Source: a virus
Lineage: Duplodnaviria; Caudoviricetes
Strand: one strand, 5' to 3'
DNA length: 56,956 nucleotides
Virus record (IMG/VR): IMGVR_UViG_3300036791_000660
Span: 1-56,956 of that record
Shown: positions 1 through 49,646 of the stretch, piece after piece
Layout of the letters: every line of letters begins with the position of its first letter
Numbering within the stretch: the first letter of the stretch is position 1
The notes under the pieces: model-generated
Seen by the model: the letters and a program-made list of their open reading frames with translations, nothing else
The model's database searches: none
What the model was told of the DNA's origin: nothing
Program-made: the position numbers and the translations under genes

Positions 1-545
1 CTAGCCCACCCCCGGCACGACACGGCAGGCGCGGCTCGGACTGGCGCGACAAGGATGGCGAGGAACGCGGGGCCGGGTCAGGCAACGCATGGTCTGGCGT
101 GGCAGGCCTGTCGAGTCTTGGCATGCCGAGACTTCTCCGGGCGTGACTTCGCTGCGCGAGGCGGGGCCGGGCATGGCAGGCGTGGCATGGTTTTGCGGGG
201 TTGGGCACGACGAGCCGAGCCAAGGCATGGCTGGTGCGGCTAGGCGAGGAAGCCAAGGGATGGCCAGCAGCGGCGCGGTGAGGCCGGCCACGGCACGGCA
301 GGTGCGGCGGGGCAACCCAAGGCGCGACGGGGGAGGCTTGGCTTCCCACGGTCCGGCACGGTGAGGCAGGCAAGTCGAGGCAAGACACGATGTGACATGG
401 CACGATGCGGTTCGGCAGGCGCGGCTAGGAGTTCGCGACGAGGTAGGCAAGGCGGGGCTGGGTGCGGCAGGTCTGGCGCGTCGAGGCGAGGGTCGCGGGG
501 CGTGGCGGGGCAAGGCACGCAATCACATGGCACGGCAGGCACGAC
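1..545 (+). ncRNA. Array of degenerate GGY-NN pentamer-repeat units (putative multi-guide RNA precursor), truncated by the window start
   Basis: 5-nt periodicity (ggcgc ggctc ggact ggcgc gacaa...). Units are delimited by GGCAGG at 24, 101, 175, 297, 365, 414, 466 and 534 and by GGCTGG at 229. No credible ORF. The repeat is seen directly; RNA status is inferred. Confidence 0.8.
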
Positions 546-548
546 ATC

Positions 549-597
549 TGCCAGTTACTGTCAGGCACTACTGACGGTCTATTGCCAACTTCTGTCA
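549..597. promoter_or_regulatory. Two TGCCA-N5-TGTCA operator-like sites (549-563, 583-597)
   Basis: The motif recurs at about ten intergenic or promoter-proximal positions in the window. Confidence 0.65.
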
Positions 598-610
598 ATA
601 AGCCTATATG
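582..610 (+). promoter_or_regulatory. sigma70-type promoter
   Basis: TTGCCA-17 nt-TATATG upstream of the Gly-rich gene. Confidence 0.65.
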
Positions 611-665
611 CCAAGCTCGCCACGCACAGGCGTTGGCGGTGAACAACCTTTCAGGAGACCTTGTG

Positions 666-1457
666 ATGTTGCGGCGTAAATTGTTGATGGCCGTCCTCGG
701 AGTCGTGGCGGCTGGTGGAGCGATGACGGCGGCCGATGCCCTCGCCAAAGGTGGTGGCGGCGGTTCCGGTGGCGGTGGTTCGGGCGGCGGTGGCGGCTCG
801 GGCGGTGGTGGTTCTGGCGGAGGAGGTTCCGGTGGCGGATCAGGAGGAGGTGGCGGCGGCTCCGGCGGAGGCGGGGGTTCCGGCGGTGGTAGCGGCAGCG
901 GGGGCGGTGGCTCCGGTGGTGGCTCGGGTGGCGGCGGAAGCGGCTCGGGCGGCGGCAGCGGCGGAGGCGGCGGATCGGGCGGTGGCGGCTCGGGCGGTGG
1001 CTCTGGCGGCGGTGGTGGCGGCTCGGGCGGAGGCTCGGGCGGTGGAGGCGGCGGCTCGGGCAGCGGCGGCGGAGGCGGCTCAGGCGGCGGAGGGTCGGGC
1101 GGCGGCAGCGGCGGCGGTGGTTCGGGCGGCGGTGGTAGCGGTTCTGGTGGCGGTGGGTCTGGCGGCGGCGGTGGCGGCTCGGGTGGCGGCTCTGGCGGCA
1201 GCGGTGGCGGTTCTGGTGGTGGCGGTTCCGGTGGCGGTGGCGGTGGCGGATCGGGCTCCGGTGGCGGCGATGCTGGCGGTGGCGGTGGCGGCGGTGCTTC
1301 TGGCGGTGGGAGTGCTGGTGGCGGGTCGAGTGCTGGGTCTAGCTCCGGGTCTGGGGCTGGCGCTGGTGCCGGGGCCTCTGCCTCGGGCGCCTCGGGTCCG
1401 TCAGGAGCCGACGGCGTCAACAACGTGAACGAGTTCTTCCGTTCGCGTCGTCGGTAG
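666..1457 (+). CDS. Exported Gly/Ser-rich low-complexity protein
   Basis: AGGAG RBS. N-terminal MLRRKLLMAVLGVVAAGG...ALA signal peptide, then a long GGGGS-type tract with varied wobble bases. Confidence 0.7.
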   Translation: MLRRKLLMAVLGVVAAGGAMTAADALAKGGGGGSGGGGSGGGGGSGGGGSGGGGSGGGSGGGGGGSGGGGGSGGGSGSGGGGSGGGSGGGGSGSGGGSGGGGGSGGGGSGGGSGGGGGGSGGGSGGGGGGSGSGGGGGSGGGGSGGGSGGGGSGGGGSGSGGGGSGGGGGGSGGGSGGSGGGSGGGGSGGGGGGGSGSGGGDAGGGGGGGASGGGSAGGGSSAGSSSGSGAGAGAGASASGASGPSGADGVNNVNEFFRSRRR

Positions 1458-1483
1458 GCTTGACGAGTCTTGTCAAGGGGCTT

Positions 1484-47894: not shown

Positions 47895-47908
47895 GGTTCA
47901 GTCCTCCC

Positions 47909-48538
47909 CTAGATCACGACGAGGGCGGCGGCGCCGTTGCGATTCCACGTCGCGACGCCTGAGCCCGTCGTGAAGTTGACGGTCATGGAGTTGGTCGGCT
48001 TGACCCGCAGGATGCGGACCGGCAGCGGCAACAGCGCGCCGATGGCGATGATGCGCTGGTTGACGAAGTCCCACGACACCGCCTGCGTGATGATGTTGCC
48101 GTACAGGCCGACCAGCGCCGGGTCGATGGCGAGCGAGAGGCGCGCCCCCGAGCCGAGCCGGTAGAAGTTCACCTGCATGTAGCTGGTGGCCAGTGGCACC
48201 GGCGAGTTCGGCGTGTTGATCATGGCGTAGTCCTGATCGAACACCGAGAACCCGGTGATCGCCCCGGCGGTGCTCGCCGGGCTGACGATGGTGGCCCGCT
48301 TGATCGGGCCACCGAGTTCGGTGGCCGGGTTGGCGCCGCTCGCGGCGAGAGGCACCGCCTCGGTGATCGCGATGCCACCGAAGAACGGATCGGTTTCGCT
48401 CGGGTCCACGTAGCCGCCCGCGAGGGCGAACATGGTGGCGGGGTCAGGCTGGGCCGTGCCTTGGACAAGGCCATCCCAAGACACGCCAAAGGAGCCGGCC
48501 GCATTGCCGGTCTGTTGCGGGTTGAGGTTGATGGTCAT
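47909..48538 (-). CDS. Capsid cement/decoration protein
   Basis: G.VQG.A..DPA..F.L.GG and NFYRLGSGAR motifs; precedes the capsid gene. Confidence 0.65.
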   Translation of the reverse strand: MTINLNPQQTGNAAGSFGVSWDGLVQGTAQPDPATMFALAGGYVDPSETDPFFGGIAITEAVPLAASGANPATELGGPIKRATIVSPASTAGAITGFSVFDQDYAMINTPNSPVPLATSYMQVNFYRLGSGARLSLAIDPALVGLYGNIITQAVSWDFVNQRIIAIGALLPLPVRILRVKPTNSMTVNFTTGSGVATWNRNGAAALVVI

Positions 48539-48545
48539 GGCTGGA

Positions 48546-49490
48546 TCAGTCCTTCTTCAGGTTGATCGCGGTGACGAACCGCTTGTTGGGCGCGTGGCGG
48601 TTCATCCACGAAGCCGGTGAGCCCATGAACCGGGTTTCGAGATGGCCGGAATCCCGGCGAGTCTGGATGGCGCGCAGCGTGCCGACGGGAACGCTTGCCG
48701 GATCGCGGGCGGCGGCCTTGGCCGCTGCGTAAATCTGGTCGCGCACGGTGCGCAGCGCGGCCTCATCGACCGCCATGATGGCGAGATCGACGCCCTTCCA
48801 TTGCGGCGAGTGCTTCTTGAAGCGCTCCATCTGCCGCAGGTCGTAGCTGGTCGCCGTGTCGCCGATCAGCGGACGCGGAGCTTGCAGGCCGAACATCCCA
48901 TCGACCGAATCGCAGGCATGCTGGTTGGGCGCGAGGTCGTGGTCCGAGCGCTCCTTCGGCATGCGCTTCTCCAGCGCCGCCATGCGCTTGCGCAGCGCAT
49001 TGAGATCGACCGCGTCGGTGGCAACCTCCTTGTCCTTGGGCGGCGGCGGTGGCGGCGCCTCGTCGTCGTCATCGTCGTCATCGTCCTTCTTCGCCTCGCC
49101 CTTCTTCTTGTCGGCCGCGACCGGCACCGGCTCGCCCGTGCCCGGAGGAGGCGGCGGCTTCTTGGCCGGCGGTGGCGGCGGCGCCTGATCGTCGTCGTCG
49201 TCGTCCTTCATCACCGGCGCGACGGGCGGCGACACTTCCTTGGGCGGCGGCGCCTCGGCGTCCTTCTTGGCGACGGCCGCAGCGGCTTCCGCCGGGCTGT
49301 GATCGTCGTCATCGTCGTCGTCCTTCTTGCCCTTGAGGCTGGCGAACTTGCTCTCGAAGGCGTCCATCCGACCGCCCATCGAGTCCAACTTTTTGTCGAG
49401 CGCATCCAAGCCCTTCAAAAGTTTGTCGAGATGCGTCCCACCGCCAGCATCGGCGGCGACCTTCGGCTTGTCCTTGTCCTTTTCAGCCAT
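48546..49490 (-). CDS. Capsid scaffold-like protein
   Basis: GAGGAG RBS; D/P/K-rich disordered body; between DUF2213 and decoration genes. Confidence 0.7.
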   Translation of the reverse strand: MAEKDKDKPKVAADAGGGTHLDKLLKGLDALDKKLDSMGGRMDAFESKFASLKGKKDDDDDDDHSPAEAAAAVAKKDAEAPPPKEVSPPVAPVMKDDDDDDQAPPPPPAKKPPPPPGTGEPVPVAADKKKGEAKKDDDDDDDDEAPPPPPPKDKEVATDAVDLNALRKRMAALEKRMPKERSDHDLAPNQHACDSVDGMFGLQAPRPLIGDTATSYDLRQMERFKKHSPQWKGVDLAIMAVDEAALRTVRDQIYAAAKAAARDPASVPVGTLRAIQTRRDSGHLETRFMGSPASWMNRHAPNKRFVTAINLKKD

Positions 49491-49554
49491 GACTGTTCTC
49501 CTCGGCTGGTTGGGTGATTGACAAATGCTGTCTGTCTGGATAGCCGATGCATTC

Positions 49555-49646
49555 GACATGGCGCGGCGAGGCCCGTCGTTGCAACGCGAGGCAAGCCGAG
49601 GCAAGGCAAGGCGTGGCTATCTGGGACGGCGCTTACGCGCCGTCCC
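49555..49646 (+). ncRNA. Stand-alone GGY-NN repeat cassette D (putative guide RNA) with 3' hairpin
   Basis: 13 in-phase pentamers (49555-49619); GGGACGGCGC-ttac-GCGCCGTCCC hairpin; TTGACA at 49518. Confidence 0.8.

Follow-up and report, generated by a model that had tools for sequence, protein, structure and literature searches.

What are the runs of five-nucleotide units that interrupt the genome of a tailed soil phage, and what could they do beside its virion genes? The window analysed here is the whole 56,956-nt stretch of a Caudoviricetes virus (IMG/VR record IMGVR_UViG_3300036791_000660), in which a sequence-only reading had noticed five non-coding loci composed of a semi-constant triplet plus a variable dinucleotide. 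A log-odds caller scoring G-G-Y in the first three positions of each 5-nt unit, applied to both strands and all five registers of the 57 kb, returned the same five loci in the same places, above the shuffles, together with one marginal call at 15232-15266 (score 10.7), which lies within the range of the maxima of 20 dinucleotide shuffles (8.4-11.1). The four stand-alone (solo) units scored 31.4 (A, 34580-34649, + strand), 23.0 (B, 40094-40025, - strand), 23.2 (C, 44774-44853, + strand) and 23.4 (D, 49555-49619, + strand), and the tract at the left end was called as seven segments with scores of 10.9-19.9. The triplet is strictly GGY in 12/16 units of A, 7/14 of B, 8/17 of C and 8/13 of D, and its third position is a pyrimidine in 59 of the 60 units of A-D, so the description as "semi-constant" was correct. 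The 5-nt register is unbroken across the 13-17 units of each solo locus. No Rfam family matched the window.

This architecture corresponds to that of the VIPR systems, already in print as three preprints (bioRxiv 10.64898/2026.04.26.720920, 10.64898/2026.04.26.720927 and 10.64898/2026.10.15.759431). Experiments with SUSP1 and P. fulva VIPR are reported in two of them, according to which the triplets sit in a protein filament while the NN dinucleotides pair with the target, of which every third base is passed over (10.64898/2026.04.26.720920, 10.64898/2026.04.26.720927). The guide RNAs (vrRNAs) are characterized by at least four tandem 5-nt units of GGY + NN (typically 9-16), a target read with a 1-nt skip in which the skipped base is the wobble base, a structured invariable 3' tail, and an RNA of about 100 nt co-purifying with Vipr. 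The solo loci carry 13-17 tandem GGY/NN units, and the five pentamer loci are vrRNAs, that is, guide-RNA genes, of the VIPR system. The likeness to phage VIPR had been rightly suspected from the sequence; the wobble-skipping code being already published, the headline of that reading is therefore not new.

The gapped reading was examined with shuffled guides as the null. For guides A, B and C only the 1-nt skip rose above it, both in the own genome and in relatives, and skips of 0 and 2 in the window stayed at null. For these three guides the match in the neighbouring gene is the single best, with no ties, among about 113,800 genome positions. Guide A matches baseplate-J codons 41-53 (ATNPGFSGNLPGS; 34383..34420, - strand) at 22/26 positions (rank 1 of 113,838; 0/200 shuffles reach the score), guide B matches codons 5-16 of a tape-measure-like gene starting at 39984 (39938..39972, - strand; 21/24, rank 1, 0/200 shuffles), and guide C lies antisense to the last 17 codons (PSFVDTGLYLSSFRAWV) of the head-tail gene at 44900-45406 (44907..44956, + strand; 24/34, rank 1, 2/200 shuffles). 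The match of guide D, which runs from the ATG of one half of a scaffold gene (49453..49490, - strand; 16/26), is not significant and ranks third in a seven-way tie. These own-genome matches, of 62-87%, lie 50-200 nt from their guides, and the skipped base falls on codon position 3 in all four, as had been anticipated. The dinucleotide counts previously given for A (9/13), B (11/14) and C (11/17) were recovered, but that of D is 7/13 rather than 7/10. The broader claim that 8 of 12 complete units decode to recognisable protein was not confirmed: a significant gapped match was obtained for three of the four solo guides and for none of the seven array segments of at least eight units.

The left-end tract (14..545, + strand) can be divided into about eight guide segments, which are 48-122 nt long and finish in GGCA(G). 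The final G of each doubles as the first G of the following GGYNN unit, and the corresponding 4-nt junction units (GGCA/GG) are located at 24, 101, 175, 297, 365, 414, ~466 and 534. Such 1-nt overlaps agree with the staggered arrays of VIPR, in which successive vrRNA guides overlap by 1 nt (legend of fig. S18 in bioRxiv 10.64898/2026.04.26.720920). The junction or handle, GGCACGGCAGG (pattern GGYNNGGYNNGGYNNGGCACGGCAGG), has matches in at least 128 viral contigs. Among 80 loci with this handle and full 2-kb flanks, an HMM placed a Vipr gene beside the array in 72 and vipr was absent within 2 kb in 8. The array-adjoining Vipr proteins have ~200-250 aa and a G-loop (G[IV]G[ED]WRP-like), and their family aligns with SUSP1 Vipr at an hhalign probability of 99.4% (E 3e-21). 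With 1-nt overlaps and a 3' handle found beside vipr genes, the 14-545 tract belongs to the staggered arrays of one clade, in which GGCAC-GGCAG closes the guides, the Vipr clade being designated GGCACGGCAG. As for the targets of the array, the exact gapped pattern of guide S2 had no match in IMG/VR viral contigs, and the three matches of guide S3a in genome contigs were dismissed, their number being close to the single chance match that 20 fixed bases would give in 596 Gb. With a view to the DNA upstream of base 1, an array 20-mer was searched, which found nothing in viral contigs and one unrelated chance match in metagenome contigs.

Which effector would serve these guides? The 1-nt skip and the wobble alignment are those of the VIPR preprints and speak for the RNA-guided mechanism that had been proposed, but an effector gene is missing from the record. 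An HMM combining SUSP1 Vipr with 51 further Vipr sequences, used with --max against the six-frame translation of the record, gave a best E of 1.4; a second genome search for vipr gave 0 matches (control 4/4); in tblastn, neither Vipr nor Vap1 of SUSP1 had a window match below E 0.13; a G-loop regex matched in spurious frames only; and Pfam and PHROG scans of 86 window ORFs contained no RAMP. For vap, whose families are diverse, a rough HMM built from proteins with a W-D-D motif, encoded after vipr in 14 loci, reached a best E of 0.94 in the window. The record begins at the array, and vipr may therefore have been cut off. Indeed, its start reads cTAG plus 9 nt and then the first array handle, and this TAG at bases 2-4 matches the layout of stop codon, short spacer, cacggcagg and array seen directly 3' of vipr in some 26 of 43 examined loci. 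The array is covered by short unitigs only, and one of these, a Logan unitig from the source-run DNA, extends 31 nt past window base 1. The most likely place of vipr is thus immediately 5' of the record start, where the contig end would have removed it. On the other hand, IMG/VR and CheckV rate the record, which lacks vipr, as 100% complete and linear, and the phage may truly lack the effector. Sequencing runs with the stretch are two soil DNA runs, with no RNA run among those listed. A search for relatives of the exonuclease gene of the window yielded one locus, without an array, and the position of vipr in the relative G047 was rejected as a pointer because the orientation differs.

A rather unlikely reading starts from this absence, and regards the phage as VIPR-null, its array and solo guides using Vipr that is supplied by a co-infecting phage, a prophage or a satellite, onto which they would load ("guns for hire", Lopez et al.) and acting against the virion genes of relatives. 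Neither vipr nor a vap-like gene is found in a record rated complete; as it starts at the array, it is the record, and not necessarily the phage, that carries vrRNAs without vipr; solo vrRNAs are reported in 346 vipr-null Enterobacteriaceae phages (10.64898/2026.10.15.759431); and 8 of the 80 loci sharing the handle also have no vipr within 2 kb. This reading is opposed by the post-vipr layout of the record start and by the source-run DNA, which continues for at least 31 nt to the left of base 1. Furthermore, vipr occurs in only 1/50 records of the target phage family. A rival could thus rarely provide Vipr, and the guides probably depend on that of the phage itself.

The solo units appear to be parts of separate small transcription units, each with a palindrome and a guide tract, to which B, C and D add a strong hairpin at the 3' end. 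Cassette A (34533..34651, + strand) has its palindrome at 34533-34551, overlapping the baseplate-J start, then 18 nt, a guide tract of 13 units (34570-34634) and the handle units GGCAA GGCAC GGCAG up to 34649, without a hairpin; its GGCACGGCAGG handle is common to the vipr-linked arrays. Cassette B (39976..40130, - strand, that of the virion genes) consists of a palindrome (40112-40130), 12 guide units (40094-40035), GGCAC GGCAA up to 40025, a hairpin with a 14-bp stem (40023-39992; z = -5.4, 0/200 shuffles equally stable) and a second small hairpin (39991-39976). Cassettes C and D are on the + strand, antisense to the virion genes, and share the ATTGACAAATG start and a GGGACGG/CCGTCCC stem. 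Cassette C (44732..44901) has the palindrome at 44732-44750, 17 guide units (44769-44853), then GGAAGGCACGGCACGG and a 14-bp-stem hairpin (44870-44901) abutting the stop codon of the 44900-45406 gene, and cassette D (49517..49646) has the palindrome at 49517-49535, 13 guide units (49555-49619) and a 10-bp-stem hairpin (49623-49646). In B, C and D the structured 3' tail takes the form of a hairpin with a stem of 10-14 bp; in A and in the guides of the array, GGCAC GGCAG stands at the 3' end. The palindrome, a 19-bp inverted repeat (ATTGACA-N5-TGKCNAT), occurs at six sites in the window, five of them beside vrRNA loci (5/5 of these loci): 17-19 nt before the first unit in all four solo cassettes, and at 581..599, 36 nt 3' of the array and upstream of a Gly-rich ORF. 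It gives 11 strand-matches vs. 0.99 expected (0/100 shuffles reach 11), and is a candidate promoter/operator motif; scans for canonical sigma-70 promoters and intrinsic terminators found nothing at the cassettes.

Compared with related sequences, the solo cassettes are insertions, each of 107-224 nt, into the virion operon. The window is longer than its closest relative at each cassette site (at the cassette A junction, as judged from tblastx segment ends). Pentamer runs were found in 1/80 related virion loci, that one adjoining the relative's own vipr, and in 0/35 related baseplate loci, and none scored in the locus of the closest relative for site A (L221). Cassette D sits between two halves of a NUDIX-protease-scaffold gene (48546..50623, - strand) which is one ORF in relatives (593 aa in L132, 553 aa in PdC23). 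Here, it consists of an N part (49649-50623, 324 aa, NUDIX + DUF2213-like) and a C part (ATG at 49490 to 48546), and the match to PHROG 6216 is divided accordingly, positions 6-308 falling on one ORF and 316-544 on the other.

It might be thought that the solo units are degenerate vrRNA relics, brought in by recombination and functionless now, which we consider very improbable. Strict GGY in just 7/14 to 8/13 units of B, C and D, a guide D without a significant target and an effector absent from the record would fit such decay. Nonetheless, relics would hardly keep pyrimidines at position 3 in 59/60 units, the 5-nt register across 13-17 units, intact hairpins, a promoter-like palindrome at a constant 17-19 nt in all four cassettes, and three guides still in frame with a conserved codon stretch.

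Guides A and C match the alleles of relatives better than the phage's own, an observation absent from the sequence-only reading. In the corresponding ATNPGYTANLPGS of relatives, guide A (A13) reaches 25/26 positions at 3 of the 35 loci, 24/26 at a further 8 and 23/26 at another 11 (own copy 22/26, null maximum 19); guide C (C17) matches at 25/34 or more in 31/80 loci, with a best of 29/34 in L148 (own copy 24/34, null maximum 24). Guide B (B12) reaches 22/24 in 1/80 loci (L134; own copy 21/24), and its match starts at the ATG of the gene in L134 and L132 and at codon 5 in the own genome. The best relative for guide D (21/26 in L203) is within the null maximum of 22, leaving this guide with no significant target, and the exact gapped A13 pattern has no match in IMG/VR viral contigs. 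The own alleles are no outliers, since 10/35 loci (A) and 40/80 (C) score below the phage's own copy. At the guide C site GC3 is 7/17, within the lowest 0.7% of windows, and the codons flanking B and C have a foreign-looking low GC3. Of the 10 mismatched positions in the own copy of the C site, 6 result from synonymous switches of codon family at Ser or Leu. The guides cover three Leu codons, and at each of them the guide reads CTN but the own copy has the rare TTG; TTG accounts for 7% of Leu codons and the background of Leu family switches is 10%, so the Leu switches are unusual. Ser switches were rejected as evidence of recoding, because a change of family is seen at 45% of conserved Ser positions when the window is compared with its closest relative. 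With regard to generality, about 20 guides in six other vipr-less loci were inspected, and a nearby match was found for one only (L032; 17/24, 1/200 shuffles), which falls outside any clear ORF and was set aside as a probable chance match.

As the guides A-C spell the relatives' version of the adjacent gene, their most likely role is to silence the late genes of relatives. We consider it somewhat probable that the loci are VIPR guide-RNA genes whose solo guides silence the late genes of co-infecting relatives from positions beside the carrier's mismatched copies. Following what is established for SUSP1, the GGY triplets would be covered by protomers of Vipr and the NN pairs left exposed, so as to read dsDNA two bases in three, the wobble base being skipped, and binding would block transcription. 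A, B and C spell conserved codons of the adjacent virion gene in its relatives' version, with baseplate J codons 41-53 (A), the first tape-measure-like codons (B) and the last 17 head-tail codons (C) as predicted targets, and the carrier's own copy, 50-200 nt from the guide, carries mismatches. Several points weigh against this proposal, among them the absence of vipr from a record rated complete, the lack of significant targets for D and the seven array segments, the exact A13 and S2 patterns without a match in IMG/VR, the own alleles that are no outliers, and the promoter and terminator scans that found nothing at the cassettes. In addition, strict GGY is kept in only about half of the triplets in B, C and D, and perturbed GGY motifs abolished silencing according to the discovery preprint (10.64898/2026.04.26.720920); the own matches of A (85%) and B (87.5%), with handle units trimmed after the alignments had been seen, exceed the 80% match cut-off given there for target calls and may permit self-silencing.

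These high own matches lead to self-regulation, in which the solo guides would bind their own neighbouring late genes as imperfect targets and time or throttle their transcription. The adjacent gene is the best own-genome match of guides A-C, cassette B lies directly upstream and on the same strand as the gene matched at 21/24, the B matches in L134 and L132 and the weak own match of D begin at an ATG, and one operator-like palindrome is common to all cassettes. We nevertheless find self-regulation improbable: a co-inherited guide and target could stay perfect, yet the own matches are 62-87%; A and C fit relatives above the own copy; the same operon lacks such cassettes in the 80 relatives; and the Ser/Leu switches at 6/10 C-site mismatches look like pairing avoidance.

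A possible, though doubtful, extension of the silencing of relatives is that the solo cassettes are RNA-guided poison-antidote modules, in which the guide would silence an essential virion gene of relatives and the linked, mismatched and partly recoded own allele would be the antidote. At a linkage of 50-200 nt, recombination could not separate the guide from the own allele, and a rival rescued by recombination would also gain the cassette, as an RNA-guided counterpart of homing-endonuclease marker exclusion. This would explain the four cassettes beside homologues of their own targets, the low GC3 at B and C, and the TTG Leu codons.

What is new here is that the guides are small self-contained genes across a structural operon, linked to the carrier's copy of the presumed target gene. 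If this linkage is functional, VIPR guides would be selfish competition modules spread by recombination, and the virion genes of relatives would join satellites, prophage regulators and vipr itself as VIPR targets. It would also provide natural triplets of guide, sensitive allele and own allele for measuring the number of NN mismatches needed for protection, and Ser/Leu codon-family switches would be the predicted escape from a wobble-blind guide with an unchanged protein.

Overall, the kind of system is known and its arrangement is noteworthy. Free-standing homing endonucleases of T-even phages, with their marker exclusion, and poison-antidote pairs offer a parallel: a selfish cassette adjoins the site that it attacks in relatives without the cassette, the allele flanking it in the carrier is insensitive, and close linkage allows spread by recombination. 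The parallel is an analogy only. Recognition here would be RNA-guided, transfer by recombination would be hypothetical, and the known action of VIPR is silencing, not cutting. Virus-borne mini-CRISPR arrays, described in archaeal viruses around 2019, are also guides without a full effector set, directed against close relatives for superinfection exclusion; they differ in their CRISPR repeats, contiguous spacers and lack of placement beside a homologous gene.

With staggered-array VIPR, as far as described in the available text of 10.64898/2026.04.26.720920, the window shares the GGY/NN tracts, guides of ~9-16 units, the 1-nt overlap, phage carriage and the wobble-aligned 1-nt skip, and its GGCACGGCAGG junction is that of the viral contigs mentioned above, most of them with a SUSP1-homologous Vipr gene; it differs from that description in lacking vipr and vap in the record, in the array at the record start and in many triplets one base off GGC. 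The solo vrRNAs of F5 satellites and VIPR-null SUSP1-family phages (10.64898/2026.10.15.759431) are also stand-alone, away from vipr, with wobble-aligned targets, and the carrier's own sequence is matched less than that of rivals, reported there for vrRNA-targeting guides. In the available account, those solos end in a pseudoknot and replace a deleted vipr-vap1 or sit in a satellite, whereas here a simple hairpin or the handle GGCAC-GGCAG serves as the predicted tail, and four solo guides are distributed across the virion operon, each beside the carrier's homologue of its predicted target.

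The five loci of GGY-NN pentamers that the sequence-only reading had named were borne out: a log-odds caller, run on both strands and in all registers with 20 dinucleotide shuffles as control, returned these alone, and reading them through gives a G-G-C-like triplet plus two free bases in each 5-nt unit. They comprise an array (14-545, plus strand) and four solo cassettes, A (34533-34651, plus), B (39976-40130, minus), C (44732-44901, plus) and D (49517-49646, plus). The four solo units scored 20-31 in the caller and array segments no more than 19.9, the shuffle maximum being 11.1; one marginal score (10.7) was found at 15232. 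Strict GGY triplets account for 12/16 units in A, 7/14 in B, 8/17 in C and 8/13 in D; each of the remaining triplets is one base away from GGC, and a pyrimidine occupies position 3 in 59 of 60 units. We consider with high confidence that the five loci are guide genes of VIPR, a phage silencing system already described in three 2026 preprints (10.64898/2026.04.26.720920; 10.64898/2026.04.26.720927; 2026.10.15.759431). In the available parts of the first, the effector Vipr is a minimal RAMP protein, the guides (vrRNAs) carry a tail after 9-16 YNNGG repeats, and their NN pairs recognise dsDNA, skipping one base per unit (mostly the wobble base), with transcriptional silencing as the outcome (10.64898/2026.04.26.720920). 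The available text of the structural work assigns one Vipr protomer to each repeat and names the G-loop residues (10.64898/2026.04.26.720927).

Guides were scored as published, joining the NN pairs by one wildcard on both strands, with shuffled unit order as null. Across the 57-kb genome, each solo guide has its highest-scoring match, or for D one of its highest, in the virion gene beside it. Guides A and B, scored without two or three 3′ handle units (GGCAA/GGCAC/GGCAG, a trimming chosen after seeing the alignments), match codons 41-53 of the baseplate J gene (22/26) and codons 5-16 of a tape-measure-like gene (21/24). Guide C is antisense to the last 17 codons of the gene at 44900-45406 (24/34), and guide D matches the ATG of the scaffold half (16/26). 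With all units included, the scores are 22/32, 23/28, 24/34 and 16/26 for A to D. The top scores of A, B and C are unique among ~113,800 positions, and were reached by 0, 0 and 2 of 200 shuffles, respectively; the own-genome match of guide D is not significant. The skipped base corresponds to codon position 3 in all four neighbour matches. Skips of 0 and 2 gave matches at null level, and a skip of 3 finds only the vrRNA gene itself.

The same guides were scored against related viral loci, many of which fit A and C better than the phage's own copy does. Guide A, scored at the corresponding site in 35 baseplate-J loci, reaches 25/26 in 3, 24/26 in 8 and 23/26 in 11 (null maximum, 19), or 25/32 against a null maximum of 24 when all 16 units are used; the peptide at this site is ATNPGYTANLPGS in relatives vs ATNPGFSGNLPGS in the window. 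The exact pattern of the 13 scored units of guide A has no match in IMG/VR. For guide C (null maximum, 24), 31 of 80 loci give at least 25/34, and one of them (L148) gives 29/34. Guide B reaches 22/24 in a single relative (L134), beginning at its ATG; at this position the window has GTG, and its own gene starts four codons upstream. The best score of guide D in relatives, 21/26, falls inside the null. The best-supported interpretation is that the solo guides silence late genes of related co-infecting phages; the carrier's own allele beside each guide is partly mismatched.

Self-regulation, by which the solo guides would act on the adjacent genes, is a live alternative. The phage's own copies are not extreme, lower scores being found in 10 of the 35 loci for A and in 40 of the 80 for C; at site C, the window's peptide is the one that agrees best with the residues coded by the guide (15/17, by-eye reading). 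On the other hand, six of the ten mismatched bases at this site fall in four Ser/Leu codons belonging to the other codon family. Between the window and its closest relative (G001), family switches are common for Ser (55 of 122 conserved positions) and uncommon for Leu (25 of 253), TTG accounting for 31 of 421 Leu codons; guides A and C together cover three Leu codons, and every one is TTG where the guide reads CT. In GC3, the phage's own target-like stretches at B and C rank within the lowest 0.6-0.7% of all virion-gene windows. Apart from this genome, a phage locus lacking vipr (L032, 2112-2260) carries a 12-unit guide with a T-run hairpin and a 17/24 gapped match ~50 nt downstream, in no clear ORF; this score was reached by 1 of 200 shuffles, and the match is possibly due to chance.

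The solo cassettes are discrete insertions in a conserved operon. Among 80 related virion loci, a pentamer run scoring at least 14 was found only in L200, where it adjoins that locus's own vipr homologue, and none of the 35 baseplate-J loci holds one. With respect to G001 (capsid 86% identical), the window is longer by ~107 bases at A, ~167 at B, ~200 at C and ~200-224 at D, as taken from tblastx segment ends. Cassette D sits within a gene that is single in relatives (593 aa in L132, 553 aa in Pantoea phage PdC23), split in the window into a 324-aa N part (49649-50623, minus strand) and a C part (48546-49490, minus strand). The ATG from which the latter restarts aligns with a Met inside the relatives' intact NUDIX-protease-scaffold gene (VLTMADDKKP in L132); in relatives, internal initiation may likewise yield the scaffold part. 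A 19-bp inverted repeat, ATTGACA-N5-TGKCNAT, precedes the first unit of each solo cassette by 17-19 nt, and a further copy follows the array. The genome has six such sites, five of them at vrRNA loci; chance would give ~1 match. The sixth copy (8399-8417, two mismatches), the sole one not beside a vrRNA locus, is located at the end of an ORF (8196-8420), with further plus-strand genes following. The phage probably uses this motif more generally, as a promoter or operator. The 3′ ends of B, C and D form hairpins with stems of 10-14 bp, and C and D have both the palindrome start and the hairpin stem in common. Since standard sigma-70 and terminator consensus scans made no call at any cassette palindrome or hairpin, we only infer that the palindrome may serve as promoter and the hairpin as terminator.

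The window spans an entire IMG/VR virus record, which has a G+C content of 65.7% over 56,956 bp and is classed as 'linear' with a CheckV completeness of 100; its sequence is contained in two soil metagenome runs. Its minus-strand genes from ~24.4 to 55.9 kb make up a contractile-tail virion module, including tail collar fibre, baseplate J, baseplate hub, sheath, major head protein and the NUDIX-protease-scaffold gene (Pfam/PHROG scans). Synteny of this module extends to PdC23, to the Klebsiella and Yersinia relatives of that phage and to 80 IMG/VR contigs (major capsid protein 43-86% identical). A RecE-like exonuclease, an AAA_24 recombinase-like protein and a HerA-like ATPase are among the plus-strand genes from 1.4 to 24 kb. 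Because no large terminase is recognisable in the 86 ORFs scanned across the window, the record may not be quite complete. At the head of the virion module, in the place taken by terminase, portal and one more gene in relatives such as PdC23, stands a 1,614-aa ORF (50808-55652, minus strand). Neither Pfam nor PDB gave a sequence match for it, its only match being a weak one to an unnamed PHROG, and its L132 counterpart is a 2,075-aa ORF in the same place. A 595-aa protein (5830-7617, plus strand) contains a HerA/FtsK-like ATPase region (PDB 8wiv_A, E 3.9e-5) and weakly matches a PHROG 'terminase large subunit' (E 1e-6); it may be either a helicase or a packaging ATPase. Next to the array, an ORF at 666-1457 (plus strand) encodes a protein that opens with a signal-peptide-like N-terminus, runs through ~200 residues consisting almost entirely of Gly/Ser repeats and closes with a short basic C-terminal stretch, matching nothing in Pfam or PHROG; G001 has a similar Gly-rich stretch (tblastx), and many repeat-length variants occur here in the run data.

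A dynamic-programming parse of bases 1-560 gave 4-nt units, corresponding to 1-nt overlaps at GGCA|GG junctions, every ~48-122 nt. The array belongs to the vipr-linked GGCACGGCAG clade. The search pattern GGYNNGGYNNGGYNNGGCACGGCAGG (junction plus three preceding units) matches at least 128 IMG/VR stretches; the matched loci have a plus-strand ORF of ~200-250 aa just upstream of the array, ending in a SUSP1-like G-loop. A Vipr-family ORF was identified by HMM in 81 of 128 among the matches listed, and in 72 of the 80 of those with 2-kb flanks. SUSP1 vipr and vap1 were located in KT454805, where the vipr ORF agrees with the residues that the structural preprint names, and a 27-sequence alignment of the new family matched SUSP1 Vipr with an hhalign probability of 99.4%. 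Array segments of at least 8 units (n = 7) had no significant match in the own genome, 1.4 Mb of relatives or the vipr loci, and the exact gapped patterns of two array guides found nothing above chance in the collections searched. Behind the vipr homologue of the one relative that has it (L254, G047:C1:34074-37547; minus strand, about locus positions 1200-1500; E 2.4e-13, profile positions 64-209) lies a tract whose pentamers read CGC-NN, not GGY-NN; this may be the YNNNG-type variant mentioned in the available part of the discovery preprint (10.64898/2026.04.26.720920).

The Vipr HMM, run with filters off against six-frame segments of at least 50 aa of the window, gave a best E of 1.4, and a profile search of the record with the Vipr alignment found none; the control search recovered vipr in four of four records, two of them outside the alignment. 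A crude model built on the proteins encoded after vipr in 14 loci matched nothing in the window either. The window starts with 'cTAG', 9 nt and then 'ggcacgacacggcagg', and in ~26 of 43 vipr loci inspected the array begins likewise, with a stop codon, a short spacer and '(c)acggcagg'. Logan unitigs of the probable source run span only 143-191 nt over the array, one extending 31 nt beyond window base 1. Although none is in the record, which is cut at the array, we judge it fairly probable that the phage encodes a Vipr itself. That the guides use a foreign Vipr is a live alternative; vipr is present in only one of 50 records of the target family.

Solo vrRNAs are known from satellites and 346 vipr-null phages, according to the part available of a further preprint (2026.10.15.759431), and the available discovery text lists seven VIPR types, including 'staggered arrays' with 1-nt guide overlap (10.64898/2026.04.26.720920). 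The array at 14-545 is of the staggered form, like those published, with its 1-nt overlaps. Silencing of co-infecting relatives by the solo guides would extend two themes present in the available VIPR literature, namely guides aimed at rivals and guides that match their carrier's own sequence less well.
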